From a virus, in the IMG/VR virus record IMGVR_UViG_3300025574_000001, positions 7,328 to 71,327 of that record: a stretch of 64,000 nt of DNA; one strand, 5' to 3'. Below are positions 6,436 to 60,763 of this stretch, piece by piece. The translations under genes were made by a program, and so were the position numbers. Position 1 is the stretch's first letter, and each line of letters opens with the position of its first letter. A model generated the notes under the pieces. That model ran no database searches, was not told the DNA's origin, and saw nothing but the letters and a program-made list of their open reading frames with translations.

Positions 6436-7347
6436 ATGACAACGACAACAAGCAAAGGCTATCAATACCCAACGATTGTTGGTGGGTCTTCTACTGATAC
6501 CGTCACTTCATATCCTCCTAGTGCAGCAGCGAACGCACTCTTACATGAAGCACGTCCGGGAGTATCATCTGTCACAACCACTGTGCGTAATGCGTACACA
6601 GGCATTGACCTCTGGGATGGTCGCATCATCTGGAACACCACCACGTTGCGATTGGAAAAATACGACCTAGGAACCACATCTTGGATTCCTGCAGCGGCGG
6701 GTGCGTCACCAGCCACAACGGTTGCCGGTCCTGCAGCGTTTGGTGATGCAACGATTCTTGGCACATCACTGCTCTATGCGCGTCAAGATCACAACCACGG
6801 ACTCCCCGCAACGACAGGACTTGCAACGACTGCCGCATTAACGACTGAGACAACACGCGCTACAACGGCAGAGACTGCGGTTAATGTTGCTGTGGGTAAT
6901 GAAGCAACGACACGTGCAATAGCGGATGCACTCTTACTTCCGAAATTGAATGGCATCCTAACATCTGCGTTTGAGTCTGTGTATGTCACTGGTTCTGCAC
7001 CCACATATGGGGGTGAGATTGACATCACGACTAACAGTTCGCTTCTTTTCTTTACCGCGGCTGCATCGACTAATTTCTTACCTAATTTTAGAAGTACACC
7101 TACCGTTACGTTGAATGCACTTATGGCAGTAAATACATCAATCACTGTCACAATGTTGGTGACGCAGGGTGCCACTCCTTATTTCTGTTCAACTTGCGAT
7201 ATTGACGGCGCTTCACAAACAGTTCACTGGCAAGGTGGCATTGCACCAACCGCCGGATTTGCGTCTGGCATTGATGCATACACATTCACAATCATCAAAA
7301 CCGCCAGCGCGACATTCACAGTCCTAGCGAGCCTCACACAGTTCTAA
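6436..7347 (+). CDS. Tail fibre-associated protein
   Basis: Contains YARQDHNHGLP and the C-terminal VHWQGGIAPT..GIDAYTFTIIKT..FTVLASLTQF motif seen at phage fibre ends. Confidence 0.65.
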   Translation: MTTTTSKGYQYPTIVGGSSTDTVTSYPPSAAANALLHEARPGVSSVTTTVRNAYTGIDLWDGRIIWNTTTLRLEKYDLGTTSWIPAAAGASPATTVAGPAAFGDATILGTSLLYARQDHNHGLPATTGLATTAALTTETTRATTAETAVNVAVGNEATTRAIADALLLPKLNGILTSAFESVYVTGSAPTYGGEIDITTNSSLLFFTAAASTNFLPNFRSTPTVTLNALMAVNTSITVTMLVTQGATPYFCSTCDIDGASQTVHWQGGIAPTAGFASGIDAYTFTIIKTASATFTVLASLTQF

Positions 7348-10044: not shown

Positions 10045-10500
10045 ATGCTTTTAAAAAAACGACTACATCAAGACGCTGACAAACTTCTTATTGGACCAAA
10101 GAGAACATTTCAGCGCATCATCGTTCATTCACTTATTGATTTGGAATACATTACATCATTAACTTGTGCATGGGAGTCGTGTGTACTCCCGGGTGTTCCG
10201 CTAGCAGCAAGTGGAAGAACACTAGATGGTTTTACAATTGATCATATCATCGCAATAAATGATGGTGGCACTGACCGACCAGAAAACATACAACTTCTAC
10301 ATCACACTTGCAATATGCGCAAAGGTGCAATCTTCACTGAAGAACGTCGAGCAAAGATTGCAGAGAAGACAAAACTTAGATGGAATGACCCGGCATATAG
10401 AAATGCAATGGCCACTCGAACACGATCACAAGAAGAACATGAACATCGAGTTGCAGGAGCACAACGCGGTGATGATCATTGGAAAAGAAGGAGTGCCTAA
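10045..10500 (+). CDS. HNH endonuclease with NUMOD3-like tail
   Basis: TIDHIIAINDGGTDRPENIQLLHHTCN, followed by EERRAKIAE. Confidence 0.85.
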   Translation: MLLKKRLHQDADKLLIGPKRTFQRIIVHSLIDLEYITSLTCAWESCVLPGVPLAASGRTLDGFTIDHIIAINDGGTDRPENIQLLHHTCNMRKGAIFTEERRAKIAEKTKLRWNDPAYRNAMATRTRSQEEHEHRVAGAQRGDDHWKRRSA

Positions 10501-11021
10501 TGTTGGTGATCTTAGAAGGGCCGGATGGGGCCGGGAAAACTACTCTCGCACAAAAGATTGCGTTCAGTGTTCACGGTGTCACTGACATTCGGCATTGTAG
10601 TCAACTAAGACGTAACCCTATGGCTGAGTATGTCGAGGACTTACACATGTACGTTCCCGGCACCGGGATGAATATCGTTTACGACCGTCACTACTTAGGT
10701 GAACTTACCTATGGACCTTTGTACCGTGGCATATCACAAGTCAGCCCAAGTATTAAGACAGCGATTGAGTACCGATTAAACAAACTTGGTGCGCTTCTTG
10801 TTCATGTGACACACGATCTTCCAACGCTAATTGAACGATGTAAGGATAAGGGCGAAGATTTTTTGCAAGAAGGTGACATTTACTTTGTGCGTCAACAATT
10901 CATTGAAGAAGTTGCGGAGTCGGGAATTAGATTCAAGGCGGCTGTGACAGATGCAACAGGTCAAGACATCCTTGATATCATCTGGCTTGCACAAGAACTG
11001 GAAAAGAGAGTGAGTGAATGA
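10500..11021 (+). CDS. Thymidylate-kinase-like dNMP kinase
   Basis: ILEGPDGAGKTT P-loop and the YDRHYLGELTYGPLYR motif. Confidence 0.85.
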   Translation: MLVILEGPDGAGKTTLAQKIAFSVHGVTDIRHCSQLRRNPMAEYVEDLHMYVPGTGMNIVYDRHYLGELTYGPLYRGISQVSPSIKTAIEYRLNKLGALLVHVTHDLPTLIERCKDKGEDFLQEGDIYFVRQQFIEEVAESGIRFKAAVTDATGQDILDIIWLAQELEKRVSE

Positions 11022-11890
11022 TCGTAATCCCTAACATGCCTATTGGTTATCGCACAGTCATTGAACATGTCATTGCACGCGGGCGTCCTGTTAGTCCTCG
11101 AGGAATGCCAACGTTGGAAGTTCCTGATGTTGTTGTGCGTCTTGACAATCCGTTCTTTGCTCTTGCACTCGGTTCAACACGGAAGATCAATCTGGCGATT
11201 GCGGCAGCGGAGACTGTGCAACTTATCGGTGGGTTTCTTGACCCACAACTTTTGACCAGTGTCTCTAAGAACTTTGAACAGTTCATGGATGATGGCACCT
11301 TTCACGGTGGTTATGGCGAACGCATCGGAGATCAGATGTTGCGTGCCGCACAAAAGTTAGTGACGGATCACAGCACGCGACAAGCCGTGATTCAACTCTG
11401 GGACAAGGACAAGGATAATGAAAGCGGATATCACGATTATCCTTGCACTCTTTCACTCGTCTTTCAAGTTCGTGATGATAAGTTAGAACTTCATACCACG
11501 ATGCGTTCAAACGACGTGTGGCTTGGGTTTCCTTATGACGTGTTTCAATTCACCCAGTTGCAAATCACGATGGCACGTGTCTTGGGCTTTGGCATTGGTC
11601 CTTACTATCATCATGCTGTAAGTCTGCATCTCTATGATCGAAATCGTTTTGATGCGGAACACTTGCGCATGGTGCCAGTGACACTCATAGATAACCGTCC
11701 ACTGGGTTTCGGCAATGTACACACTGACCGAAGTATGAATATCTTTGGTGTATTACAAAGAGCCAAAGATATTGGGACAGGTAATAAAAGTGAGGTCACA
11801 AAGCGTTCACCATCAGAAGAGTGGTACGTGAAGCAGTTGGCACCACACGTTGCACCACACACAAAAGACAAAGGGACGAGAAACAAATGA
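11018..11890 (+). CDS. Thymidylate synthase-fold enzyme, probable dCMP hydroxymethylase/hydroxylase
   Basis: DYPC (Cys143) and MRSNDVWLGFPYD. Asp174 sits at the position of E. coli ThyA Asn177 and T4 gp42 Asp179. Confidence 0.8.
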   Translation: MIVIPNMPIGYRTVIEHVIARGRPVSPRGMPTLEVPDVVVRLDNPFFALALGSTRKINLAIAAAETVQLIGGFLDPQLLTSVSKNFEQFMDDGTFHGGYGERIGDQMLRAAQKLVTDHSTRQAVIQLWDKDKDNESGYHDYPCTLSLVFQVRDDKLELHTTMRSNDVWLGFPYDVFQFTQLQITMARVLGFGIGPYYHHAVSLHLYDRNRFDAEHLRMVPVTLIDNRPLGFGNVHTDRSMNIFGVLQRAKDIGTGNKSEVTKRSPSEEWYVKQLAPHVAPHTKDKGTRNK

Positions 11891-12378
11891 CGGCAATAGG
11901 ACGACGACAGAGTTGGGACAGGACGTGGATGGCCATGGCGTTTGTGATGGCACTTCGGTCAGATTGTACACGCTCACAAATAGGTGCAGTGATTGTGAAT
12001 GATAAGAATCGAATCATCGCCACCGGATATAACGGTCCACCCGCGGTAAGTCCTGTCGATTACACATGTCATCTCTCATGTCCCAGGGCGAATGGTGATG
12101 TAGGAGATCAGTACGGGTTCACTTGCATTAGCATTCATGCCGAGGCCAACGCGCTTCTCTTCTGTGATCGGTCAACGATTGAAGGTGGTTCACTCTATGT
12201 GAACGCTGTGCCGTGTCCCGACTGCGCGAAGTTGATTGCGAACAGCGGACTCACGCACGTGTACTTTGTCGATGATGGGAAACCAAATCGAATCCCACAC
12301 ACGGTTACAGAATACTTAGACCAACACGGTGTCCTAATGCTAGAGATGCAGATGCGTGATGAGTTTGCAGAACGTTAA
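11887..12378 (+). CDS. dCMP deaminase
   Basis: IIATGYNGPP, HAEANAL and PCPDCAK Zn-binding motifs. Confidence 0.92.
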   Translation: MTAIGRRQSWDRTWMAMAFVMALRSDCTRSQIGAVIVNDKNRIIATGYNGPPAVSPVDYTCHLSCPRANGDVGDQYGFTCISIHAEANALLFCDRSTIEGGSLYVNAVPCPDCAKLIANSGLTHVYFVDDGKPNRIPHTVTEYLDQHGVLMLEMQMRDEFAER

Positions 12379-14137
12379 ACTCCATTACATCGAGTCGTTG
12401 CGTGATGCTGATGAATTCATGTTATGGCTAGGTAATCAGCGTTCCGTTCTTGCAGTTGACACAGAGACGACAGGTCTCAAGCCGCACAGAGATCACGTGC
12501 GCCTTGTGCAATTTGGCGATCACGATGAAGGGTGGACGTTTCGCTGGGATCGATGGGGCGGTGTCGTTAAAGAAGTGTTTGATAGGTATGAAGGTGATTA
12601 CGTTTTTCACAACGGAAAATTCGACCTTGCGATGTTGAAGCAGTGGTGTGACGTTGTGATTCCTCCTTCACGTGTTCACGACACTGCAATCATGGCGCGA
12701 CTACTTGACCCATGTGGGTTACGTGGTCTTAAGCCGGTGGCCACGATGTTAGTCGATAGGAATGCGGGTGTTGGTCAAGCGATGTTGGATAAGGCGATGC
12801 ATGATGGTGGATGGGACTGGTCAACGATTCCGTATGACGTGCCAGCCTACACGATGTATGCCGCGATGGACTGTGTGCTGACTGTGCGTCTCTTTGAAAT
12901 TCTCTACCCACAGATCTTGACGACTTGTCCGGTGGCATATGATTTGGAACGTGAGTTCGCTTCTGTGGCGCAAAAGATCGAGGCTCGAGGATCACAGGTT
13001 GACGCGGATTACACTAAGCAAGCATTTGAAAGTCTCACCACGTATATGACGACTGCGGAACAGTGGTGTGTTGACAACTACAATGTGAAGCCAGGTTCTA
13101 ATCAAGCAGTGGTACAAGCGCTTATGAATGATGGTGTATCGTTCATCAAGACAACAAAGGCCGGTGCCGTGTCGCTTGATGCTGATGTGTTAGAAGGAAT
13201 TGATCATCCACTTGCAAAGACTGTCTTACAACGACGACAAACGCAAAAGGTAGCGAACACTTATCTCAAAAACTTTTTGGAAATGTCCGATGATCAATAC
13301 ATCATTCGCCCAGGGATGGATGCACAAGGAACTGTGACAGGTCGAATGAGTATGGAGTTGCTTCAAACACTCCCACGTCGCAATGAAGACAACCCGTTAG
13401 CGGACATCGTGCGCAACTGCATTGTGCCGCGTGAAGGTAACGTCTTGCTCTTCAGTGACTTTTCCCAGGTGGAAATGCGTATATTGGCTCACCTCACTGG
13501 TGATCCCGGATTAGCAGAAGCATTCACCCAAGATGATTTTTTTCTTAGTGTTACTCGGGAAATTTTCAATGACCAAACAATTACAAGAAAAGACCCGCGA
13601 CGACAGACCACTAAGAATGGGCTCTATGCGTGGGCGTATGGTGCGGGTGCCGATAAGTTCGCGATGACTGCGGGTATTCCAAGAGAAGAAGGCGCTGTGT
13701 TCTTCAACACAATCAAGAATCGTTTCCCGATGATGGAAGGATTCAAGAAACAAGTCGAACGTGTAGCAACTGAACGCGCACAACTGGAAGGTCGACCGTA
13801 TGTCCTGTCGCCTTTCACACGTCAGCCCTACTATCCGCAACGTGAGGATAAGATTTACGCTTTGGTCAACTACTTAATTCAAGGTAGTGCGGCATCGATC
13901 TTGAAGATGAAGGTTGTTGAACTTGACAACGCGGGTGTTGGCGATTACATCACACTCTTGATTCACGATGAAGTGATTGTGGATGCACCATTGAATATGA
14001 ATCGTGAAATCGCTGGCACGATGCAAGCGATAATGAACGATGATCACATATTGTCGGTTCCTCTTATAGCGGAACTTAGTGCGGGTTATCGGTGGGGTGA
14101 AAAGTTTGATTACCTGGGATCCTCGTTAGATGTCTAG
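12356..14137 (+). CDS. polA: DNA polymerase family A (3'-5' exonuclease plus polymerase)
   Basis: DTETTGL exonuclease motif; motif A DFSQVEMRILAH; motif B RQTTKNGLYAWAYG; motif C IHDE. Confidence 0.95.
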   Translation: MMSLQNVKLHYIESLRDADEFMLWLGNQRSVLAVDTETTGLKPHRDHVRLVQFGDHDEGWTFRWDRWGGVVKEVFDRYEGDYVFHNGKFDLAMLKQWCDVVIPPSRVHDTAIMARLLDPCGLRGLKPVATMLVDRNAGVGQAMLDKAMHDGGWDWSTIPYDVPAYTMYAAMDCVLTVRLFEILYPQILTTCPVAYDLEREFASVAQKIEARGSQVDADYTKQAFESLTTYMTTAEQWCVDNYNVKPGSNQAVVQALMNDGVSFIKTTKAGAVSLDADVLEGIDHPLAKTVLQRRQTQKVANTYLKNFLEMSDDQYIIRPGMDAQGTVTGRMSMELLQTLPRRNEDNPLADIVRNCIVPREGNVLLFSDFSQVEMRILAHLTGDPGLAEAFTQDDFFLSVTREIFNDQTITRKDPRRQTTKNGLYAWAYGAGADKFAMTAGIPREEGAVFFNTIKNRFPMMEGFKKQVERVATERAQLEGRPYVLSPFTRQPYYPQREDKIYALVNYLIQGSAASILKMKVVELDNAGVGDYITLLIHDEVIVDAPLNMNREIAGTMQAIMNDDHILSVPLIAELSAGYRWGEKFDYLGSSLDV

Positions 14138-14489
14138 CGCACTGCACATACGATTGTTCTTTGCCCATAATGGTCTTGGACCATACGCTTGTTTCTTTTG
14201 TGGTGATGATGTCACACTAGAGAAAGTAACAATTCATCATAAGAATCACAATCATGATGACAACCGAAAATCAAACTTGAAAGCATCACACTCCGGTTGT
14301 CATAGTCGACATCATGCCACCGGGCGTGTTAAATCAGATGAAGAATGCGCAAAGATTTCAATAGCGCGTAAGGGTATGTTTGAACGTGGTGAACTTGTAT
14401 CACCAACAAAAGGTGTAGGTCACACACCCGAAACTCGCGCAAAGATGAGTGCATCAATGATGGGAAACTTGAATGGAAAACGAAGGTGA
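14130..14489 (+). CDS. HNH endonuclease with NUMOD3
   Basis: GPYACFFC...IHHKNHNHDDNRKSNL..SHSGCHSRHH and HTPETRAKMS. Confidence 0.85.
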   Translation: MSSALHIRLFFAHNGLGPYACFFCGDDVTLEKVTIHHKNHNHDDNRKSNLKASHSGCHSRHHATGRVKSDEECAKISIARKGMFERGELVSPTKGVGHTPETRAKMSASMMGNLNGKRR

Positions 14490-19832: not shown

Positions 19833-21146
19833 ATGACGATGGGTAAGAGAATCGGATACGCGAAGTTAGGGCGTTCAATGCCACTTGTTGCTAGTGAAGG
19901 CGACTTCAGTGATGATGAACCTGCACGTGTGTTACGTGATCTTGCCCATCGTCACCCGGAGGATGAATTCGTTATTCTTGGATTCAATTCATGTGATGAC
20001 AATGCAACAGCACGTATGCCCGACAACGTTGTGAACCCGTGGCATGATGGGTGGCGTGATTCATTGAAAGAATTAAGAACGGGTTGGAAGGCGCCACTAG
20101 GACCAGAGAATCAGATGAAGATACAAGATTGGGGTGACGCAAACATTCTCCCATGGTTTCGTTCGTGTGATGCTGTGATCATCTGGCTTGGACAACATGG
20201 GAACACGAATAGTTTTATCCCGCCAGCAAATGGGTTGTGGTCTGATGGTGCAGTTAAACTTCACGACGAATACCTTTCGTATGGAAGTTACTGTGTACGT
20301 GGTGTGAATGCATTTCGTCAAGCCGACCCACTCACACGTGAAGAAATTTATCTAGTCGCTGACGGACGTAATCATTTGAAAGCACGTGACACAAAGTGGC
20401 CACTTAAGCATCCGATTCAGGGACAATACATTTGGTCACGTAAGACGAAGTTTGAACGTTATGGCGATACACGATCACCCGAAGAGTGTGGGTTCCCAGA
20501 AGCAGAGTGGGACAACGATCACATATGGATGGCCGATGTGAAGTATGAATACACACGTCTTGAAATCTCAGGCATCCTTCCCTGGGAAGTTGACATTCGT
20601 TACTCTGAGGAATTTGATTCACGACGTCACTTTGGTCTTTTCATCAATGAGGCAAGAGCGTATGTTGGCGTGTCACGTCTTAAGGCGATGCAAGAGTACG
20701 TGTTACAACTAAACCCGGTGTTCATTCATGGAAAATGGGGTAAGGAATCATTAGCCGTTCTTGGCTTTGATATTCAGCAAGCGCCCGCAACGATTTACTA
20801 TGACATCTTACGTTCTGTGAAGTGTACGTTCTCAACACCTTCATCAGGTACGGGTTGGGCAACGACGAAACCGTGGCAAGGTTTCGGTTGCGGGACCGTG
20901 ACGTTCTTTCATCCGAAATACGACACACAAGACAACATCCTTGGTGATGCACCCAAGGAACTTCGCGATTGGCTTCGTGTCACATCACCTGAACAATTGA
21001 AAAAGCGCGTGGAACATCTTGACACTCACTATGACGATTGGCTTTGGATTATCCGCGAACAGAAAAAGCATTATGATACGGCAGTTGCAGAGATGAGACA
21101 CATCAAAAAAATTGAGGAGAGAATATATGGTAATGACAATGGATGA
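19833..21146 (+). CDS. T4 beta-glucosyltransferase-like DNA glycosyltransferase (GT-B)
   Basis: Motifs collinear with T4 BGT as recalled: YLVADGR vs YLFTDIR (catalytic Asp100), TTKPWQ..YDTQ vs TLRVWE..FDTK, and VTSPEQLKKRVEHL vs VNNRAELIDRVNEL. Confidence 0.75.
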   Translation: MTMGKRIGYAKLGRSMPLVASEGDFSDDEPARVLRDLAHRHPEDEFVILGFNSCDDNATARMPDNVVNPWHDGWRDSLKELRTGWKAPLGPENQMKIQDWGDANILPWFRSCDAVIIWLGQHGNTNSFIPPANGLWSDGAVKLHDEYLSYGSYCVRGVNAFRQADPLTREEIYLVADGRNHLKARDTKWPLKHPIQGQYIWSRKTKFERYGDTRSPEECGFPEAEWDNDHIWMADVKYEYTRLEISGILPWEVDIRYSEEFDSRRHFGLFINEARAYVGVSRLKAMQEYVLQLNPVFIHGKWGKESLAVLGFDIQQAPATIYYDILRSVKCTFSTPSSGTGWATTKPWQGFGCGTVTFFHPKYDTQDNILGDAPKELRDWLRVTSPEQLKKRVEHLDTHYDDWLWIIREQKKHYDTAVAEMRHIKKIEERIYGNDNG

Positions 21147-22218
21147 AACGACGACACACATCAAAGAACCACCGAAAAAATTGGACATAGCAATTGTGTC
21201 CACATCAATCAATGAAGCACCAGTGGCGTATGCGAAGTGGGCAAAGTTAGGACGCTTAATTATTGCGGGTGACAAGAACACACCACCTACACTTGAACAC
21301 TACATCAAATCCCTGGGTGAACAACACCAGTACATACCGCCGGCGCAACAAGATCGATGGGAATCGAGTGAAGTGATTGGGTGGCATAACATCCAACGTC
21401 GCAACATTGCAATCCTCGAGGCGATTAAGTCAGATGTTGATTACATCATCACAGTGGATGACGACAACATCCCACTTCAAAACATTGATCTTATACTCTC
21501 TGCATTTGAAAATTCTCACGCACTACACGTTAGTTCAGCACTAGGTTGGTACGACCCGTGTCGTGAACTTATCCCCGCTGTGTGGCATCGTGGATTCCCA
21601 TATTCTTTTCGCAATCAGCAAGGTAAGCAAGGAGTTGAGTCGCTTGAACGATATGACGTGATAAAAGTGCCAATAGGTGTTGTGGCGGCAACGTGGTTGG
21701 GTGAACCTGATGTTGGTGCAATTGACCGCATCACGAATCACGTACTTGTTCAAGGACATCACGCCACTCTGTTAGACCCGGGTGTTGTGCTACAACCAGG
21801 AACGTGGTGTCCGTTCAATTCGCAAGCAACAGCGTGGCGTGCAGAGTACGCTTCACTGATGATGTGCTGGCCTGGTGTTGGTCGATTCGATGACATCTTC
21901 GCAAGTTTTGCAGCGCGTCGAGTGTTGGATGAATTGGGTGTTGGTGTGAAGTATGTGCAACCACTTGTGCGTCAAGATCGCAATGAACACGATTCATTCG
22001 TTGACCTTGAGAATGAAATGTTTGGCTACAAACATCAAGATGAGTTGTGCGAACTTCTTCGTGCAGTTGACTTACGTGGTATAGATGACGTGCAAGATAT
22101 GCAACATCACGTCTATGATGCTCTTAGTGGCGCTAGATTTTTACCACATAGAACTATTGAATCATTTGAGTGTTGGATGAACGACGTTAAGACAGCGGAA
22201 AAGGAGCGTGCAGTATGA
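21127..22218 (+). CDS. GT75/RGP (UDP-arabinopyranose mutase)- or STELLO-like protein
   Basis: IITVDDDN, HRGFPYSFR, WLGEPDVGA, GTWCPFNSQ and GRFDDIFA match RGP IYTIDDDC, VRGYPFSLR, WLNIPDYDA and GRYDDMWA. Confidence 0.75.
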   Translation: MVMTMDETTTHIKEPPKKLDIAIVSTSINEAPVAYAKWAKLGRLIIAGDKNTPPTLEHYIKSLGEQHQYIPPAQQDRWESSEVIGWHNIQRRNIAILEAIKSDVDYIITVDDDNIPLQNIDLILSAFENSHALHVSSALGWYDPCRELIPAVWHRGFPYSFRNQQGKQGVESLERYDVIKVPIGVVAATWLGEPDVGAIDRITNHVLVQGHHATLLDPGVVLQPGTWCPFNSQATAWRAEYASLMMCWPGVGRFDDIFASFAARRVLDELGVGVKYVQPLVRQDRNEHDSFVDLENEMFGYKHQDELCELLRAVDLRGIDDVQDMQHHVYDALSGARFLPHRTIESFECWMNDVKTAEKERAV

Positions 22219-23183
22219 AGATAGCGGTTACGGGTGCAGGTGGATTCATTGGTGGTCACCTTGTCAATCAGTTGTTGAATGATGGACACCAAGTTTCGGC
22301 GTATGACATTAAGCCGTTAAGAGAATGGCAACAAGTTCGTGGCGATGCGCGTAATCATCCTCTTGTTGATGTTGGTATGAACAATGCTGATTTTGATTTT
22401 GAAGATATGGATGAAGTGTATCAACTTGCAGCCGACATGGGCGGGTTGGGATTCATTCAAAACAACAAAGCACGATGCATGCTATCGGTTCTTGCATCAA
22501 CGAACACATTGTTAAAAGCCAATGAAGCGGGTGTAGGTCGATTCTTTTACCCATCATCAGCGTGTGCGTACCCAGCGGGTGTGCAGACTGAAATTGATTC
22601 ACCGCCAATTAAAGAAAGCGACATATACCCGGCGATGCCAGAGGATGGGTACGGCTGGGAGAAGTTATTCAGTGAGCGAATGTGTAATCACTTCTATGAA
22701 GACTTCGGTCTTGAAACACGTGTGGCGCGATACCACAACACATACGGCCCATGGGGTGAATGGGAAGGTGGTCGTGACAAGGCTCCCGCGGCAATGTGTA
22801 GGAAAGTCGCAATCGCTAAGTTGTCAAAGAGTCATGAAGTTGAAGTATGGGGTGATGGAATGCAAACACGAACGTTCACATACATTGATGATTGTCTAAA
22901 AGGCACAGTGATGTTGACGCGAAGTGACGTGCATGAACCCGTGAACCTTGGTTCCGCGGAACTCATATCCATCAATGATCTGGCGAATCTCACTGCACTT
23001 ATTGCCGGCGTGAACATCCACATACGTCATATCCCCGGCGCGTTGGGCGTGCGAGGTCGATGCAGTGACAACACACTCATCAATAAGTTATTTGACTGGG
23101 AACCTAGCATTTCATTAAGTGAAGGAATGGAACGCACTTATGAATGGGTTTATAATCAGGTGAAGGCAAAATATTTCTCATGA
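22215..23183 (+). CDS. GDP-mannose 3,5-epimerase-like NAD-dependent epimerase
   Basis: VTGAGGFIG, QLAADMGGLGFI, SSACAYP, YGWEK and GGRDKAPAAMCRK, all GME-type motifs. Confidence 0.88.
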   Translation: MKIAVTGAGGFIGGHLVNQLLNDGHQVSAYDIKPLREWQQVRGDARNHPLVDVGMNNADFDFEDMDEVYQLAADMGGLGFIQNNKARCMLSVLASTNTLLKANEAGVGRFFYPSSACAYPAGVQTEIDSPPIKESDIYPAMPEDGYGWEKLFSERMCNHFYEDFGLETRVARYHNTYGPWGEWEGGRDKAPAAMCRKVAIAKLSKSHEVEVWGDGMQTRTFTYIDDCLKGTVMLTRSDVHEPVNLGSAELISINDLANLTALIAGVNIHIRHIPGALGVRGRCSDNTLINKLFDWEPSISLSEGMERTYEWVYNQVKAKYFS

Positions 23184-23548
23184 TAACTGGCAATTGTGTT
23201 AAGTGTGGCACATGGCGACAGTCACTTCATCGTGATCATATCATTGCAAAGTGCAATGGTGGAAGTGATGATCCCAGTAACATCCAGTTGTTGTGCGCGA
23301 ATTGTCATGAAGACAAAACACGTGAAGATTTAACAGGTCGAACAATAAGTGAAGAAACACGTGCCAAAATAAAAGGTCATCCTCATCGTGGTCCTAAACA
23401 TCATTCACCAGAAACACGTGCAAAAATAGGTGAAGCGCGAAAAGGACAAGTGTTCACGCCAGAGACACGGGCGAAGATGAGTACATCAGCAAAAGAATCA
23501 TCTAAACGCGGATGGGAAACACGACGAAGAAATGAGAGAAAAACATGA
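23180..23548 (+). CDS. HNH endonuclease with NUMOD3 repeats
   Basis: CVKC...HRDHIIAKCNGGSDDPSNIQLLCANCH, plus ETRAKI/ETRAKM repeats. Confidence 0.88.
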   Translation: MITGNCVKCGTWRQSLHRDHIIAKCNGGSDDPSNIQLLCANCHEDKTREDLTGRTISEETRAKIKGHPHRGPKHHSPETRAKIGEARKGQVFTPETRAKMSTSAKESSKRGWETRRRNERKT

Positions 23549-24021
23549 CATTCACACCACCCGAATCAGATGACTACACATTCAGTGAGTGGCTTGACTC
23601 CACAACTGAATTGCAAGTGGGCGCATACGGAATCAACCCGGGGAAATTGCAGGGTGAAGCGTTGAAAGGATGGTGTGCAATCAACGTTCTTGCAGCCACT
23701 GATGAACTTCACGAATTCTTACAGGAAGTGCCGTGGAAGCCGTGGGCATCAGGTATGCAAATCAATCGTGATGCAGCCATCAGTGAAATCGTTGACACCA
23801 TGCACTTCATCTCAAACTTGTTGGCGACATTCGACGTCACAGGTGAAGAACTTACACGTGTGTATAAGGCAAAGCAAATTCGCAACGCACAACGTCAAGC
23901 CGAAGGCTACACGGGATTGGACAAGTGTTCAGGTTGTCACCGCGACAAACAAGAAGTCGGCGGATGCATACATGAACAAGGTCCAATGACGTGCAATGGT
24001 TGTGGGACGGTGTGGCTGTGA
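23545..24021 (+). CDS. Dimeric dUTPase/dCTPase (T4 gp56-like, MazG superfamily)
   Basis: DELHEFLQEVPWKPW...EIVDTMHF...YKAKQIRNAQRQAEGY. Confidence 0.85.
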   Translation: MTFTPPESDDYTFSEWLDSTTELQVGAYGINPGKLQGEALKGWCAINVLAATDELHEFLQEVPWKPWASGMQINRDAAISEIVDTMHFISNLLATFDVTGEELTRVYKAKQIRNAQRQAEGYTGLDKCSGCHRDKQEVGGCIHEQGPMTCNGCGTVWL

Positions 24022-24398
24022 GTACGCGAACACATCAAAAAGTTTTTCTAACAAATAATGGTGATGGGCCGTGGCCTTGTCACTTTTGCAAAGAACTTGT
24101 GTATGGACCTATTCCAAATGGAAAAACAAAATATGTTGCTATTGTTCATCACATTGATGAAGATCGTTCTAACAATGACAAATTGAATCTTGTAGTGGCT
24201 CATCACAGTTGCCATTCTTCATATCACGCAACTCATCCACCAAATGATGTTACACAAAGTGACCAAGCCAAACGAGGTTGGAAGACACGAAAACTTCAAG
24301 GAAATAATCTTGCTAATGCATACTGCACAACACGTGGTATGAAACGCAGCAACGCAACAAGTAAGGGTTGGATAACGCGAAAGAGGAATGCATTATGA
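24018..24398 (+). CDS. HNH endonuclease
   Basis: GPWPCHFC...VHHIDEDRSNNDKLNL..AHHSCHSSYH. GTG start overlaps the upstream stop. Confidence 0.8.
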   Translation: MSTRTHQKVFLTNNGDGPWPCHFCKELVYGPIPNGKTKYVAIVHHIDEDRSNNDKLNLVVAHHSCHSSYHATHPPNDVTQSDQAKRGWKTRKLQGNNLANAYCTTRGMKRSNATSKGWITRKRNAL

Positions 24399-25609
24399 CA
24401 AAGTCAACTCACACAGCCATTGATGTACAAGGTTTCGCTGGCGGGTTCACACTGGGAATGGTGCAGGCAGGTTTCACACTTGTTTCAAAATGCGAAATGA
24501 AGGGTGCATTCGGTGCAGCCAACTGTGAAGCGAATCGTCATCTTCTTGGCAACAAGTGGGATCTTCAAGTTGGGCCACAGGAGAGTTGGGAAAACCGAGG
24601 TGCTGAAGTTCAGTTTGGCAATCCTCCGTGTAGTGCGTTCAGTCCTCTTAGCGCGAAATCGTTTCGTGGTATGAACAGTCCTATCGCCCACTGTATGTGG
24701 GCAGAAAGTCAGTACGCCGCACGTGCAATGCCATATGTGATGATCTTTGAGTCTGTGCAACAGGCTTACAATCAAGGTCTCCCGATGATGCGCGATATTC
24801 GCACGTGGCTTGAACACGAATCAAAAACGAAGTGGGAACTGTATCACGTCCTTCATAACAATGCCGGCCTAGGTGGTGCGTCAATTCGTAAGCGATATTT
24901 CTATGTGGTGTCGCGTATCCCATTTGGTGTTGATGAACCACACATCACACGTGTGCCAGTTCTTAAGGATGTGTTAGGTGATCTAATGGGACTGGGTCAG
25001 ACGTGGGAAGCCCAAGCCTATCGACGTCAACCATCGTGGTGGGCAAAGCCAATGCGTTCAAAGTTGAATGTTGTGGATGGTCACATCGGTCGCAACAACG
25101 CAGTGGATGTGTTGCGTGTATTGCAACTTCTTGACGCTGTGCCGTGGGGTGAAGGTGAAGTTGTTGGGCAAGTCGCGAAAAGGTACTATGAACAGTACGG
25201 CGAACTTCCTGATCTCTGGACCAACACGCAGAAGTGGGTGGACAAGGATTGGCAGATGGGATTTCACCAACCCATCAAAATGAAATGGGACAAGATGGCG
25301 CGAGTGATCACAGGCGCAGTGTTGCATAAGAACATTCACCCACGGGAGAATCGGTTTCTTACACATCGCGAGGCTGCACGAATTCAAGGGTTTCCTGATG
25401 ACTGGAACATTCGCCCGTTGCGTGGCGTGAGTGGATTAAGCGCAACGTGGGGCAAGGGTATCCCAGTGCAAGCGGGCAAGTGGATTGGAACAGCGATTAA
25501 GAATGCACTTGACGACAACCCGCAGGAATATCAAGGTGAATTGATTGGAGAGAGGGAACACGTCATCGACTGGACTAACACATATCGAAAATTCACGACT
25601 GAACGGTAG
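24395..25609 (+). CDS. C5-cytosine methyltransferase-fold protein (divergent)
   Basis: GNPPCSAFS (motif IV), FESV (VI), SIRKR (VIII) and REAARIQGFPD (IX). Motif I DVQGFAGG and motif X WGKGIP are non-canonical. Confidence 0.8.
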   Translation: MTKSTHTAIDVQGFAGGFTLGMVQAGFTLVSKCEMKGAFGAANCEANRHLLGNKWDLQVGPQESWENRGAEVQFGNPPCSAFSPLSAKSFRGMNSPIAHCMWAESQYAARAMPYVMIFESVQQAYNQGLPMMRDIRTWLEHESKTKWELYHVLHNNAGLGGASIRKRYFYVVSRIPFGVDEPHITRVPVLKDVLGDLMGLGQTWEAQAYRRQPSWWAKPMRSKLNVVDGHIGRNNAVDVLRVLQLLDAVPWGEGEVVGQVAKRYYEQYGELPDLWTNTQKWVDKDWQMGFHQPIKMKWDKMARVITGAVLHKNIHPRENRFLTHREAARIQGFPDDWNIRPLRGVSGLSATWGKGIPVQAGKWIGTAIKNALDDNPQEYQGELIGEREHVIDWTNTYRKFTTER

Positions 25610-31909: not shown

Positions 31910-32184
31910 CTAAGTCCATCTCTCTCCCTCTTCATTAGTTCGATGCAGCCCGCGTACCCAGCGATGTCAATGAGTGAATCACGTTGACCGCCACCATTGT
32001 TGTACCGGGCAATCTTCACACCAATCATACACAGTGCAACTTGTTCAGGTGTGACGTCGACACCAAGGATAGGACTCCACAATCCCGCAATAGTTGTGAA
32101 TGATTGTAGTGGTGTGCCATAGTCTTGTTGACGTTCGCCATTGATGATTTCATCGGCTTCACGTAATACTGACTTTTCACTCAT
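31906..32184 (-). CDS. DUF6378-like protein
   Basis: LREADEIINGERQQDYGTP..SFTTIAGLWS...VALCMIGVKIAR...DSLIDIAGYA. Confidence 0.8.
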   Translation of the reverse strand: MSEKSVLREADEIINGERQQDYGTPLQSFTTIAGLWSPILGVDVTPEQVALCMIGVKIARYNNGGGQRDSLIDIAGYAGCIELMKRERDGLS

Positions 32185-33005
32185 GGGCGTTCCTTGTCAT
32201 GGCGTAGTTGGTGCCACCCGGTGAAGTTGGCGTGGTTGTGATGCTCATATGAATTGTTGTAATCACAAGCGAATGCCTGGTGCTCAAGTGGTGATGCGTG
32301 CATCGGGTTTGCGTTTGTGAGTTGCTCATAAAGGCGCGCATCAGCATCAAAGTCTTTAACGTCACCGGCGTGTAGTGATGACACACGCGCACAACGCGCC
32401 ACACTCATGATTTGGCATTCGCCCAGTGAACGGGTGCGTGATTCTTCTTCAGTGACATAAGGCAAATGCCAGTACCGAAGTTGCGGCGTGCTCTCATCCA
32501 TTGCTTGCTTCATCAGCACCGCCGCTGCACGAATCTCTGGTTGTGCCATTGGTGAACAACGCAAGCCAAAGAAGTTATCCCATTCAGTCGATGTGACCAC
32601 AATGGTGTGCCACATGAATGGTTCAAGATAGCGGTTAAGAACTGATTTGTGAAGACGGTGTTCAGGATCAGGATGACGGTTGAGATAGATGATAATTGAA
32701 TCAGTCGTATCCACAAGAATGTCACGAATAAGATCCTGTGCGTCACTCAAGTCTTGACCTTCCAGTTCACTGCCACCTTGCATACCCTTTTGTTCGCGTG
32801 GATGTGAGATAGGTAGTGCGGGTGATTCATCGATTCTGTCCAGTTGCTTTTGAATCGGAATGGCGCGTGAGGACGCAGAGTTCCTGGAGAAAACACGGTG
32901 CGTGTTGAATTCAGCCAACACGAATCGGTGAAGTGTCACTTCCATCGTTGTGATTCGTGCACCCGTGTAGATTGAATCTTCAATGATCTTGGCTTCTGTG
33001 TTCAT
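32181..33005 (-). CDS. thyX: FAD-dependent thymidylate synthase (ThyX-like)
   Basis: AEFNTHRVFSRNSASSRAIP (ThyX motif variant), RYLEPFMW, SVARCARVS and HASPLEH. Confidence 0.85.
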   Translation of the reverse strand: MNTEAKIIEDSIYTGARITTMEVTLHRFVLAEFNTHRVFSRNSASSRAIPIQKQLDRIDESPALPISHPREQKGMQGGSELEGQDLSDAQDLIRDILVDTTDSIIIYLNRHPDPEHRLHKSVLNRYLEPFMWHTIVVTSTEWDNFFGLRCSPMAQPEIRAAAVLMKQAMDESTPQLRYWHLPYVTEEESRTRSLGECQIMSVARCARVSSLHAGDVKDFDADARLYEQLTNANPMHASPLEHQAFACDYNNSYEHHNHANFTGWHQLRHDKERP

Positions 33006-33481
33006 GGCAGTACCACGTGTTCGCACTTATCACAACAACCGTCCTCACCCAGTCGTCTTTGTTCCATACACAAGTCAAGGATCGTATGACACGCGACACA
33101 TGAACTTGTTCGATTCTCTTCCACAACACGCGCTTCATATTCCTTCCACGCAATCACAGCCGCTTTGAACAACACATTCGTTTCAAAGAGGTTGCCAATG
33201 TCGGCACCTTCGAGATGTGTGAACACTTCAACCATGTGTTTGATTTGTTGCGCCTGCACGTCAGGGCGTGTGTATTCACTGAAGACCTTTAACGCATCAA
33301 TGAACACACTGTCAATCTGTTCTTGCAAGGCAAGAGTGGCGTGTGTTTGTGCCATGATGCTAAGTGCTACTGCATCCCAGTGATTATCTTCATCACGTGA
33401 AAAAACCAAATCATCCGCAGTTCTCAATAATCGTGCTGCTTCATGCACGTGAATCGCTACTGCATCTATTTCGTCACTCAT
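33002..33481 (-). CDS. Hypothetical protein
   Basis: 159 aa, coupled ORF, with C-terminal CxxC...CCDKC. Confidence 0.55.
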   Translation of the reverse strand: MSDEIDAVAIHVHEAARLLRTADDLVFSRDEDNHWDAVALSIMAQTHATLALQEQIDSVFIDALKVFSEYTRPDVQAQQIKHMVEVFTHLEGADIGNLFETNVLFKAAVIAWKEYEARVVEENRTSSCVACHTILDLCMEQRRLGEDGCCDKCEHVVLP

Positions 33482-56988: not shown

Positions 56989-57549
56989 ATGAACGCGCCA
57001 ACAATCTTCCAGGAACAAGCGCACTATCGCAAGATCTTCGTCAAGCACAACGGCGATGGTCCCTGGGCATGTTTCTTCTGTGGTGATGAAGTATCGCGTG
57101 TGGAGAAGGATACACGCTTCCGTCTCGCGATTCATCATAAGAATCACAACCATGATGATGATCGAAAATTGAATTTAAAGCCAGCGCATAATTCATGTCA
57201 TTCACGGCATCATTCAATTGGACGTAAACATACACCTGAGACTCGTGCAAAACAACGTGCGGCAAGTATGGGGAATCAGCATGGTCTTAATCCTTCTGAT
57301 GAGACACGTGAAAAACTTCGTGTAGCATCGACTGGCAGACTTGGTCCTAATAGAGGAAAAATTCCATGGAACAAAGGCGCGGTCACACCCGATGAAGTAC
57401 GTGCAAAGATAAGTGAAGCACATAAAGGAAAAATCCTGTCACCGGAGACGCGTGCAAAAATAAGTAAAATTCACAGAGGAAAACCTAAGTCACCAGAGAC
57501 ACGGGCACGTATGAGTGATGCGGCAAAACGACGGAAGGTATCGCTATGA
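56989..57549 (+). CDS. HNH endonuclease with NUMOD3 repeats
   Basis: GPWACFFC...IHHKNHNHDDDRKLNL..AHNSCHSRHH, plus four ETR(A/E)K-type repeats. Confidence 0.88.
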   Translation: MNAPTIFQEQAHYRKIFVKHNGDGPWACFFCGDEVSRVEKDTRFRLAIHHKNHNHDDDRKLNLKPAHNSCHSRHHSIGRKHTPETRAKQRAASMGNQHGLNPSDETREKLRVASTGRLGPNRGKIPWNKGAVTPDEVRAKISEAHKGKILSPETRAKISKIHRGKPKSPETRARMSDAAKRRKVSL

Positions 57550-58940
57550 GCACTATGCAAACCGGCACTGAGGATGGTCCTACTTCAGAACGCGGGTACC
57601 CTCAGGATTTCCCAATGAACTGGAACATGTGGTCCGCTGATATGCAGGAATCGGCAGGTGATCTTCGGTGGCCGAACAGCATCAACGTGTATCACAAGAT
57701 GAGGACTGATGCGCAGATCTTCGCACTCACATCAGCCATCTCATTGCCAATTCGAAGTTCACGATGGGTCATCGACCCAAATGGTTCACGGGATGAAGTG
57801 ACGGAACTTGTTGCGAACGCAATGGGTCTTCCTATCAAAGGTCAAGAGGAACCGGCACCACGTAGTCGTCTTCGCTTTAATCACGATGAACATCTTGCAC
57901 ACGCGTTGCTTGCACTCATCTATGGATTCATGTTCTTTGAAGAAGTTGGTGAAATCAATGCGCAGATGCAGTGGCAGTTGACGAAACTCGCGCCACGTAT
58001 GCCACAGTCAATTCAGAAGATCAATGTGGATAAGGTCGGTGAACTTATTTCCATCGCGCAGTATTCGCGCCCAGGCGAACCAATGATGGAAGGTTTGGTC
58101 ATCCCAGCAAATGCACTCGCACCATACATATGGGGTAAGGAAGGTGCGAACTGGCTTGGACGTTCACTTCTTCGACCGTGTTATCGACACTGGCTCTTGA
58201 AGGACCGATTGATTCGTGTTGACGCGATGAAGAATGAACGATTCGGAATGGGTGTTCCAGTCGCCACCGCACCACAGGGCGCCACACGTGAGACCGTAGA
58301 ACGATATGCAGCGATGGCGCGGTCGGCGCGTGGTGATCCACAAGCCGGTGCGGGTATGGCGGCAGGTTCGAAGTTTTCAATTGAGGGTGTCACAGGAACG
58401 TTGCCTGACATTCTTAAGTCCATTACATATCACGATGAACAGATGGCGCGTTCATTCTTGGCAATGTTCCTTGGCCTTGGACAAGCAACACATGGTTCAC
58501 GTGCCCTGGGTGAATCATTCGTTGACTTCTTCAAGATGAGTGTTGATGCAACGGCAGGATGGTACAAGTCTTGCACAAACAAAAACGTCATCGAAGACAT
58601 TGTGAATTGGAACTACGGCATTGATGAGAACGCACCGCAGATCACCTGGGACGAAGATCCTGAATCACGTATGGATGCAACGGATCTTGTGGCATTGATT
58701 GAGAGCGGCACCATCGTCGTTGACAAAGAACTTCGCACATGGATCTCTGACAGGTGGGGTGTTAGTGACCCGGGTGCTGGCACGCCTGATCCTCCGGGTC
58801 CAAGTCCCACAGTTCAGTTGGTTCCTAACCTTCTCCCAGGTGAAAAGATTCCTGCACTTCCCGCTGGTGCTGCCCAAGCACGCGCACACCGCGCTGAAAT
58901 GCGTCGGCGTGAACGGTGGGATTCACAAAACGGCGGATGA
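57546..58940 (+). CDS. Portal protein (DUF935 / Mu gp29-like)
   Basis: YHKMRTDAQI, ALIYGFMFFEEV, GRSLLRPCY and GSRALGE. Follows TerL. Confidence 0.9.
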   Translation: MSTMQTGTEDGPTSERGYPQDFPMNWNMWSADMQESAGDLRWPNSINVYHKMRTDAQIFALTSAISLPIRSSRWVIDPNGSRDEVTELVANAMGLPIKGQEEPAPRSRLRFNHDEHLAHALLALIYGFMFFEEVGEINAQMQWQLTKLAPRMPQSIQKINVDKVGELISIAQYSRPGEPMMEGLVIPANALAPYIWGKEGANWLGRSLLRPCYRHWLLKDRLIRVDAMKNERFGMGVPVATAPQGATRETVERYAAMARSARGDPQAGAGMAAGSKFSIEGVTGTLPDILKSITYHDEQMARSFLAMFLGLGQATHGSRALGESFVDFFKMSVDATAGWYKSCTNKNVIEDIVNWNYGIDENAPQITWDEDPESRMDATDLVALIESGTIVVDKELRTWISDRWGVSDPGAGTPDPPGPSPTVQLVPNLLPGEKIPALPAGAAQARAHRAEMRRRERWDSQNGG

Positions 58941-60763
58941 CCATTCACCAAGTCCCAGTGTGGGAACTGTTTCCTACACGCGTGCAAGCGACAACTGATC
59001 CCACAACACTCGCTGAACTATTCGCACTTCTTAACGTCACTGACGCAACTGATGAAGAACAGTTACCGGCACTCTTCGATTACATCGACTCACCATTGTG
59101 GTTGTCTGCGTCCATCATCCTTATGGATGAAGTGGATGTGTTCCTCTATGCTCACGTTAAGATTGATGGTTCATATGTGCAAGCGGTGTTTGATGAGAGT
59201 GAAGAACGTGACGCGTCAGGCAAGTGGGTTGGCAATGGTGTATCATTCGCTAAGACGCAAGCGCGTGTGAGATTGCAGATACTTGGCAATCAAGCGCGCA
59301 CGATGTCAGGGTTGAATAAGAACGCACCAGTGATGATCGCTATCAACAAGGTGCCACAAGGAAGTACCACACCTCCGTATTCCAAAGATGAACACAGTGC
59401 TAGCAAAGAAACACATCACTGGGAGGATATGCCGACTGCATCTGACAATGACGCTGTGAAGACGGAAGGTGCAATCGTTTACATTCAAGTCACGGGCACC
59501 AAGGATAACTTCGTTGGGTGGATGGGAACTGGCAGTGTGGCACCCGTGTTGTTGTCAATGAATGGTGTTGACCTCTACAATAAGGATGGCACGCCAGCAG
59601 AAGGTGCGCCACTTGTACCCACTGTCATTCCTGGAGGAAAAGTACCGGGTGCACCAAAACCACAGGGCATCTCAAAGAAGGTTGAAGGTGATCACACTGG
59701 ACTTAACCTTAGTATTCCTGGTGTGTATGATCGTGAAGCGGCAGTTGCAAGTGCAAGAGAAGTTGGTCAGAAAATAGTGGATGCACAACTACTTGTTACA
59801 AAGGGTACTTCATCTAGTAGTCAAGATTTTGTAGATGCAGGAAAGTTAAAAGCGAATGTCGCTGCCACAATTGCCGCTAAGATGGGTGATAAGTATGATG
59901 CACAGATCATGCCTGAGGTTCGTGTACCCGGTGATCCTAATGGTGCAACGTATGCAGAGAAAAGTTTTTCAACTAAGTCAGCATCTGAACTTTTCACAAA
60001 GAATGATGTGTGGGAAAAGTACAATGCGCCAGATAGCACCACCAGATATAAGTATGTAGGTACGTTAGGTCAAACAGTTGTTGGACGTACATATGAAAAT
60101 GGTGGTATTCAAAATGTAGAGACAGTGGTCACTCTTGGACCAAAGGCACTTGGCCTTGGTAAAACGGGTGTAAGAACAAACATCACCGGCGACACACCCG
60201 AAGTTGCACAAGCACAACGTGAGGAAGGCGTAAGTAGTCTTGTTCACTTATGGGCACAGTCATCAAATGATGAACACCCAGTATCACTTGCTGTTCAAAA
60301 CTCTGCGGTTAAAGAATTTGGTCTTCCTGATACAAAAGCATGGGGTAAGGGTGGTTCACTTATGAAGAATGCAATTGTTCAAGTAGAGGCTGCAAAAGGT
60401 GAGGCTCTTCAAGCATTCTTACGCGCACAGTACGACGCCACACAGGAATTTTTTAAAGCGCAAGGTATCACCGCGGTGACGTTGTTTCGAGGTTTTAAAT
60501 CAAGTTCCACTGCGTTAAAAGCAAACTCAGGTGACCAAGTTAAAGTACAGATGAGACCGTTATCTTCATTCTCTTATTCGAGACAACAGGCGAATAAATT
60601 TGGTGGTGGTGGACCGAACAAGGTTCTTATCGTTGGTGTGATACCAATTGAAAACATTCTCTCAACGTCTCTCACAGGTGTCGGTTGTCAGAGTGAAGCA
60701 GAAGTTGTTGTGATTGGTGGAAAGAACATCTACACTCTTGACGCCAGGGCAGGAGGTTATTAA
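58937..60763 (+). CDS. Head-module protein with a C-terminal ADP-ribosyltransferase-like domain
   Basis: FDESEERDASGKW motif; C-terminus TLFRG...PLSSFS...ANKF...SEAEVVV. Confidence 0.65.
   Translation: MTIHQVPVWELFPTRVQATTDPTTLAELFALLNVTDATDEEQLPALFDYIDSPLWLSASIILMDEVDVFLYAHVKIDGSYVQAVFDESEERDASGKWVGNGVSFAKTQARVRLQILGNQARTMSGLNKNAPVMIAINKVPQGSTTPPYSKDEHSASKETHHWEDMPTASDNDAVKTEGAIVYIQVTGTKDNFVGWMGTGSVAPVLLSMNGVDLYNKDGTPAEGAPLVPTVIPGGKVPGAPKPQGISKKVEGDHTGLNLSIPGVYDREAAVASAREVGQKIVDAQLLVTKGTSSSSQDFVDAGKLKANVAATIAAKMGDKYDAQIMPEVRVPGDPNGATYAEKSFSTKSASELFTKNDVWEKYNAPDSTTRYKYVGTLGQTVVGRTYENGGIQNVETVVTLGPKALGLGKTGVRTNITGDTPEVAQAQREEGVSSLVHLWAQSSNDEHPVSLAVQNSAVKEFGLPDTKAWGKGGSLMKNAIVQVEAAKGEALQAFLRAQYDATQEFFKAQGITAVTLFRGFKSSSTALKANSGDQVKVQMRPLSSFSYSRQQANKFGGGGPNKVLIVGVIPIENILSTSLTGVGCQSEAEVVVIGGKNIYTLDARAGGY

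Follow-up and report, generated by a model that had tools for sequence, protein, structure and literature searches.

What does the open reading frame (ORF) at positions 19833-21146 of a 64-kb phage DNA window encode, and, if the product is a DNA glycosyltransferase, which sugar would it place on which base? The window is the whole stretch of DNA that was analysed, positions 7,328 to 71,327 of IMG/VR record IMGVR_UViG_3300025574_000001. An earlier note had read the product, from the letters of the sequence, as an enzyme like the β-glucosyltransferase (BGT) of phage T4, and this reading is supported by structure searches, by homology of the donor-binding domain and by a T4-style hydroxymethylcytosine gene set. 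We regard it as quite likely that the protein is a DNA 5-hydroxymethylcytosine (5hmC) glycosyltransferase acting on the phage's own replicated DNA; its donor is probably a sugar nucleotide other than UDP-glucose.

19833..21146, + strand: GT-B glycosyltransferase, remote homologue of T4 BGT, predicted DNA 5hmC glycosyltransferase (ORF, AlphaFold2 model, Foldseek, hhalign, conserved residues)

The frame is open throughout, as the earlier note had it, and encodes 437 amino acids; an identical database protein of 435 amino acids begins two codons downstream, at the third codon (19839), which is likely the true start. An AlphaFold2 model made with 48 relatives as input reached a predicted local distance difference test (pLDDT) score of 91.8 and a predicted template modelling (pTM) score of 0.91, and in a Foldseek search of the PDB the top six matches to this model were all T4 BGT entries (E 7e-9 to 4e-7), with other GT-B enzymes ranked below. 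Among predicted viral structures (BFVD) the top two matches were proteins of uncultured phages, the second being labelled DNA beta-glucosyltransferase (E 4e-18). T4 BGT ranked first for the whole chain in two independent structure searches, with model residues 5-433 superposed on BGT residues 1-351; it was top-ranked also for the N-terminal domain alone, and a Foldseek search with the model of that domain alone returned no significant match. Structure prediction and fold search against T4 BGT, the check that had been proposed for this protein, therefore recovered a BGT-like GT-B fold with T4 BGT as the nearest solved relative.

Single-sequence tests were weak (hhalign against T4 BGT alone gave 32% probability, and a PDB profile search placed BGT at E 0.16), so that a comparison of family with family was required. 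The comparative set comprised 80 related loci from IMG/VR, with residue conservation and gene-cassette counts taken over 53 relatives; the reference set for BGT was the true T4 gene (L003:10401-11456:-) plus 41 homologues, 42 in all, and the profiles given to hhalign held 52 members of the transferase family and 28 of the BGT family. These aligned at 96.2% probability (E 2.2e-9) along the full C-terminal domain (residues 233-433 on BGT 152-351), with R282 on R195, K346 on R269, Q349 on E272, D364 on D287 and Y240 on Y159. On this comparison the donor-binding half of the transferase is demonstrably homologous to BGT.

All five motif pairings listed in the earlier note reappear when alignments to the actual T4 BGT sequence are computed. 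SRLKAMQEY with QRESKMVEF (R282 on R195) and TTKPWQ with TLRVWE (K346 on R269, Q349 on E272) fall within the profile-profile alignment just described, well beyond chance. KRIGYAKLG with MKIAIINMG and DDEP with SSET make up the best local alignment of the N-terminal region (K5-RIGYAKLG on M1-KIAIINMG, E29 on the active-site residue E22), but a weak one (E 0.0055, probability 6.7%), and a global hhalign of the N-terminal halves failed to align; YLVADGR with YLFTDIR (D177 on D100) was returned in the same register by a region-restricted search, at an E of about 0.08 and so not significant by sequence. The order of the motifs agrees with the whole-chain superposition, and D177 and D100 each come after strand four of the first Rossmann-like domain. 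D100 is invariant across the BGT family, and among the relatives of the transferase D177 is kept in 53 of 53 and E29 in 50, the set E29, D177, R282, K346 and D364 being each retained in 49 to 53; of R191, R195, R269 and E272, which in BGT bind the donor's diphosphate and ribose, R191 has no clear partner, and R275 falls one position off. The acceptor half is weakly BGT-like, as the best available match, and for that reason the equivalence of D177 to D100, the catalytic base of BGT (Lariviere et al. 2003, as cited in 10.1101/2023.12.21.572611), is one that we infer.

The family itself is large and uncultivated, with no curated model and no cultured representative. Metagenomes hold at least 301 relatives at 41-79% identity, none of them named, and when clustered at 90% identity these give at least 301 clusters, against 42 for the classical BGT family; an exhaustive search returned 235 relative clusters at 50% identity. 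A tblastn search over 50,697 records of isolate phages found no relative. A Pfam row for Sp-CxC (E 0.085) was dismissed as noise.

The transferase gene sits in a replication and nucleotide-metabolism module, which in the window runs P-loop kinase, ThyA-fold enzyme, dCMP deaminase, PolA, SNF2 helicase, PD-(D/E)XK nuclease, AAA_24 ATPase, a protein like single-stranded-DNA-binding protein, transferase, GT75 protein, SDR (short-chain dehydrogenase/reductase) epimerase, dUTPase_2 protein and C5-methyltransferase-fold gene, with HNH endonuclease genes interspersed; gene order in the 80 related loci matches it. The genes that bear on the acceptor base are:

10479..11021, + strand: P-loop nucleotide kinase-like protein, predicted 5hm-dCMP kinase (weak P-loop matches to thymidylate kinase models)
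11018..11890, + strand: ThyA-fold enzyme, predicted dCMP hydroxymethylase making 5hm-dCMP (PF00303; gp42 signature)
11821..12378, + strand: dCMP deaminase, dUMP supply for dTMP (PF00383, E 1.8e-20)
23545..24021, + strand: dUTPase_2 all-alpha NTP pyrophosphatase, predicted to deplete the dCTP pool (PF08761, E 3.4e-10)
24368..25609, + strand: C5 cytosine DNA methyltransferase-fold gene, downstream of the dCTPase (PF00145; PADLOC type II methyltransferase models)
32181..33026, - strand: divergent ThyX-like flavin thymidylate synthase (PF02511, E 5.9e-9)

The best solved match of the ThyA-fold enzyme is the CMP hydroxymethylase MilA, and at E. coli ThyA positions 143/146/169/177 it reads D/C/D/D, identical to T4 gp42; this signature is present in 37 of the 37 relatives' loci where a hydroxymethylase was found, and Asp at position 177 specifies cytosine (PMC13326640). 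Five further syntenic loci have the deaminase and no hydroxymethylase, and in these the fetched DNA stops within about 350 bp of the deaminase gene. Kinase and hydroxymethylase genes are adjacent in 24 related loci, an arrangement found also in the clusters of phages RB69, DLP3 and RL38J1 (PMC13326640). The T4 dCTPase gp56 scores over the PF08761 cut-off and thus shares a Pfam family with the 23545-24021 protein, whose gene adjoins the transferase in 52 of the 80 related loci. The ThyX-like protein (E 4.3e-10 against TIGR02170, below the model cut-off) could supply dTMP, so that the ThyA-fold enzyme would be available to hydroxymethylate cytosine. In four distant loci with another genome layout (L068, L073-L075) the transferase lies within a few kb of the kinase, hydroxymethylase and deaminase genes, suggesting a functional link and not inherited synteny alone. 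The gene set is predicted to follow the logic of T4, in which cytosine is replaced by 5hmC before replication. A methyltransferase-plus-TET route to 5hmC was ruled out, the complete genome having no match to Tet_JBP.

For the sugar, the earlier note had suspected a donor other than UDP-glucose from the residues at the R269 and E272 positions. The residue argument holds in part; what favours such a donor is the gene context, with two sugar-nucleotide genes directly downstream:

21112..22218, + strand: GT75 nucleoside diphosphate (NDP)-sugar pyranose-furanose mutase homologue, MtdL/RGP-like (Pfam RGP above cut-off; overlaps the transferase end)
22215..23183, + strand: GDP-mannose 3,5-epimerase (GME) homologue (Arabidopsis GME 2C59; overlaps the mutase stop codon)

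The epimerase aligns with Arabidopsis GME 2C59 over its full length, residues 1-318 (E 3.6e-92, 312 bits), and the equivalents of Cys145, Tyr174, Lys178 and Lys217 are identical; we take Cys145 and Lys217 to be the acid-base pair and Tyr174 and Lys178 the SDR pair. It is predicted to make GDP-L-galactose or GDP-L-gulose from GDP-D-mannose. The mutase, for which the ATG at 21127 is the likelier start, matches the structures of MtdL (7XPR and others) at E 2e-28, MtdL being the GT75 mutase that turns GDP-L-galactopyranose into GDP-L-galactofuranose (PMC9937993). It keeps equivalents of the DDD motif, Arg159, Asp195, Ser228, Gln229, Arg257, Asp260, Arg289 and His292, and each of these positions (with Ser or Thr at 228) is retained in 32-33 of 33 phage GT75 homologues; the Ser86 position is Asn. 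Roles have been assigned in MtdL to Arg159 (proposed nucleophile), Asp260 (base), His287 (Mn-binding) and Asp87 (sugar-contacting) (PMC9937993). A GME-type epimerase beside a homologue of a GDP-L-galactose mutase is the pairing that would be expected for synthesis of GDP-L-galactofuranose.

The gene cassettes found beside the transferase in related loci differ:

GT75 with a true GME (window included): 9 loci of 53
GT75 with a different SDR: 14 loci of 53
GT75 alone: 11 loci of 53
nucleotidyltransferase with an extra domain or gene: 12 loci of 53
nucleotidyltransferase cassette with a SIS isomerase homologous to the RB69 arabinose 5-phosphate isomerase: 5 loci of 53
no sugar gene (L069, L070): 2 loci of 53

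A sugar-nucleotide gene thus adjoins the transferase in 51 of the 53 loci, and cassette type tracks the transferase tree (10 changes, against a mean of 32 for shuffled labels), as expected if enzyme and donor co-evolve. Lys at the R269 position, which had been offered as a hint to the donor, says nothing about it, since K346 is invariant in the transferase family whatever cassette is present. Residue 349 is Gln in the window protein and Glu in 44 of the 53 relatives, and Gln occurs at seven of the nine epimerase-linked loci and at none of the other 44. The hint drawn from Gln at the E272 position therefore survives to the extent that this residue is found only with the epimerase; the loci that carry it are close relatives on the tree, where an effect of the donor is inseparable from shared ancestry, and Gln349, although compatible with the donor idea, was set aside as a marker of GDP donors and is not counted as evidence.

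Seventeen relatives (for example L050:11296-13397 and L038:11335-12896) have a nucleotidyltransferase in place of the mutase and epimerase, either fused to an unknown C-terminal half or beside a 280-aa unknown protein. The SIS isomerase found in five of these is 27% identical to gp55, the arabinose 5-phosphate isomerase of RB69, and this arabinose-type cassette is paired with a gp42-type (5hmC) hydroxymethylase and not with a 5-hydroxycytosine synthase. One relative, L034 (11690-16533), has an enlarged cassette after the transferase, consisting of an S-adenosylmethionine-dependent methyltransferase, GT75, a UDP-glucose/GDP-mannose dehydrogenase, GME and a protein with PF18723, the helical domain of the 5-hydroxymethyldeoxyuridine (5-hmdU) DNA kinase, which points to a more complex modification or to another one, on thymine.

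Every step of the pathway that we propose is based on homology, conserved residues and gene context. The gp56-family pyrophosphatase (23545-24021) would drain dCTP, and the ThyA-fold enzyme (11018-11890) would turn dCMP into 5hm-dCMP, from which the adjacent kinase and host enzymes would make 5hm-dCTP for incorporation by the phage PolA. The transferase would then take up the DNA in the cleft that separates its two Rossmann-like domains; Asp177, which we propose to be equivalent to BGT Asp100, would act as general base, and the diphosphate of the donor would be held by Arg282 and Lys346, its ribose by residue 349. For the donor, the epimerase would turn host GDP-D-mannose into GDP-L-galactose, which the GT75 mutase may convert to GDP-L-galactofuranose; the product would be L-galactosyl, possibly L-galactofuranosyl, 5hmC. 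As a whole, the explanation by T4-BGT-like glycosylation of 5hmC with a donor made by the phage appears likely. That this donor is a GDP-L-hexose, likely GDP-L-galactose, made by the adjacent epimerase and mutase is a tentative prediction, to which we give somewhat less than an even chance. The most specific version, in which 5hmC is decorated with L-galactofuranose from a GDP donor that the phage makes out of host GDP-mannose by its own 3,5-epimerase and GT75 mutase, is doubtful.

It may also be supposed that a 5hmC DNA glycosyltransferase is at work with an ordinary host donor such as UDP-glucose, and that the mutase and epimerase serve, for example, a second glycosylation or a non-DNA glycan. 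UDP-glucose is indeed the donor of the closest solved structure, K346 and R282 are unchanged in relatives with quite different sugar cassettes, L069 and L070 carry the transferase with no sugar gene next to it, and GT75 homologues are found also in a phage glycan island unrelated to DNA. This supposition is nevertheless improbable: the genes for transferase, mutase and epimerase each overlap the next and lie between recombination genes and the dCTPase, and both the regular filling of this slot and its tracking of the transferase phylogeny are what co-evolution of enzyme and donor would lead one to expect.

A glycosyltransferase whose acceptor would be a protein, a glycan of the cell envelope or a small molecule, and whose likeness to BGT would come from the common GT-B fold, is a poorer explanation and one we hold to be distinctly improbable, given that two methods put BGT at the top for the whole chain, as does the ranking for the N-terminal domain alone, that the gene is part of the replication and nucleotide-metabolism module, and that it co-occurs with the gp42-type hydroxymethylase even in other genome layouts. 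Finally, 5-hydroxycytosine (as in RB69 and DLP3, and a base that had also been allowed for in the earlier note) or 5-hydroxymethyluracil as the acceptor base was rejected as highly improbable on the hydroxymethylase signature and its RB69 gp48 control, for although MilA is also among the best matches of the 5-hydroxycytosine synthases (table in PMC13326640), the dCMP deaminase adjoins the ThyA-fold enzyme and L034 has its 5-hmdU DNA kinase domain near the transferase, the window enzyme and all 37 linked relatives have Asp at 169 as well as the cytosine-specific Asp at 177, whereas RB69 gp48 in the same alignment has at 169 the Asn that marks 5-hydroxy-dCMP synthases (PMC13326640).

Several observations weigh against 5hmC glycosylation with a phage-made GDP-L-hexose as we propose it. 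Pfam, PHROG, NCBIfam and PADLOC contain no model by which the transferase is recognised, and PF09198, the model of the BGT N-terminal domain, which is present in all 42 BGT homologues gathered, has no match at E <=0.1 for the protein or at E <=10 genome-wide; since the sequence model of the BGT family is not matched, we file the transferase as a remote sister family of BGT, outside GT63/PF09198 membership. In the mutase, the position of the Mn-binding His287 of MtdL is Gln, as in 30 of the 33 phage homologues, and that of the sugar-binding Asp87 is Ile (Ile, Thr or Val across the phage homologues), so that the enzyme may be impaired or work on a different sugar. Among isolate phages, the GT75 gene has homologues only in cyanomyoviruses and in a 735-kb uncultured phage; the one in Synechococcus phage S-T4 (L089; MH412654.1 77002-77910) is annotated as a membrane protein and belongs, along with heptose-pathway genes and fucosyltransferases, to a glycan island that has no link to DNA modification. 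The C5-methyltransferase-fold gene, present in 55 of the 80 related loci, has no obvious role if all cytosine is replaced, and full replacement explains neither this conserved gene nor the avoidance of AGCT in the window; that avoidance shows that some sequence-specific pressure, one at least, still acts on the DNA.

The AGCT tetranucleotide is absent from the 64-kb window, for which shuffles predict about 135 occurrences and a Markov estimate about 79. The same tendency is seen in the two closest relatives, which are independent assemblies (L086, 0 against 35 expected; L087, 7 against 31), whereas counts are normal in all more distant relatives, and at the AGCT sites of L087 the window has GGCT, AGCC or GGCC instead. 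Real selection specific to the lineage, and no artefact of assembly, seems to be at work. GATC and CATG are likewise under-represented.

With T4 BGT (CAZy GT63, PF09198; PDB 1C3J, 1J39, 1NZD) the window protein has in common the two-domain GT-B fold and the partnership with a gp42-type dCMP hydroxymethylase and a gp56-family dCTPase; a Glu and an Asp that tentatively pair with E22 and D100, then an Arg, a basic residue and an Asp, are conserved in the same order. It differs in its low identity (about 10-12%, with no PF09198 match), in having Lys for R269 and Gln for E272, and in length (86 residues more), and it has additional helices (about 55-112) and strands (about 195-240); BGT uses UDP-glucose, whereas the window donor is predicted to be a GDP-L-hexose, and the window phage, with its PolA, PD-(D/E)XK nuclease and primase-polymerase, is unrelated to the T-even phages.

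Earlier work has already described phage GT-B DNA glycosyltransferases built like BGT and has associated them in metaviromes with thymidylate-synthase homologues: mining of IMG/VR with hidden Markov models returned GT-B matches associated with such homologues and with sugar-modifying genes (10.1101/2023.12.21.572611). The metavirome enzymes GT53, GT66 and GT94 of that study likewise have a proposed D100-equivalent Asp and transfer unusual sugars onto 5hmC; by their description they are set apart from the window protein, coming from methyltransferase-plus-TET post-replicative clusters with heptose or Kdo-type (3-deoxy-D-manno-octulosonic acid) sugars, and the text makes no mention of GDP, galactose or furanose.

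Described too are phage-made NDP-sugars for cytosine (PMC13326640), in the arabinosyl-5-hydroxycytosine pathway of RB69 and DLP3 and the galactosyl-glucosyl pathway of RL38J1. These clusters resemble ours in their thymidylate-synthase homologue, thymidylate-kinase-like kinase, GT-B transferases and phage-made NDP-sugar, and some relatives of our transferase carry an RB69-like cassette of isomerase and nucleotidyltransferase. RL38J1 also uses a pyranose-furanose mutase, of the FAD-dependent UDP-galactopyranose mutase type and not GT75. The three phages make 5-hydroxycytosine (Asn at 169, where the window enzyme keeps Asp), and their transferases resemble BshA, PimA and sucrose-phosphate synthase, and not BGT, in the table of that paper (PMC13326640).

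MtdL (PDB 7XPR-7XPV; PMC9937993) shares with the window mutase the catalytic Arg, the Asp and the DDD motif, and the window mutase is paired with a GDP-mannose 3,5-epimerase, the type of enzyme that produces the MtdL substrate GDP-L-galactopyranose; MtdL, however, serves a small-molecule pathway, the biosynthesis of the antibiotic A201A, and not DNA. The DNA sugar donors named in the literature examined are all UDP-sugars, the literature searched holds no report of L-galactose or any L-hexose on DNA, and among papers on GDP-L-galactose and bacteriophage none concerns DNA modification by its title or the opening of its abstract.

Sugar-coated cytosines are a main phage route around restriction enzymes and CRISPR nucleases, and T4 BGT is a working tool for the mapping of 5hmC. 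The cassettes described here would provide one scaffold with a naturally occurring range of donor specificities (the GDP-L-galactose type, GT75 by itself, GT75 with another epimerase, and arabinose-type nucleotidyltransferase with isomerase), a range that could help to understand and engineer the choice of sugar in DNA glycosyltransferases. Should the prediction of GDP-L-galactose be true, it would add a new sugar and a new class of donor to DNA hypermodification; should the L-galactofuranose reading be true, a large, uncultivated sister family of T4 BGT would have undergone several donor switches among its members.

The source genome, of which the window is 64 kb, is 75,028 bp long, carries direct terminal repeats and has a completeness rating of 100%. 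A contractile tail is indicated by baseplate J and P2-I tail proteins. The nearest relatives of the window PolA are actinophage polymerases (34-38% identity), and WhiB is encoded by relatives' loci but not by the source genome, so that an actinobacterial host is suggested and no more.

Five small HNH and/or NUMOD3 homing-endonuclease-like genes (10045-10500, 14130-14489, 23180-23548, 23991-24398 and 56989-57549) are scattered over the replication, modification and packaging modules, two of them splitting the run of epimerase, dCTPase and methyltransferase genes that is contiguous in relatives. Just after the Mu-type portal gene, positions 58916-60763 encode a 615-aa protein with a C-terminal match to PF07357, the dinitrogenase reductase ADP-ribosyltransferase family (E 1.8e-6).

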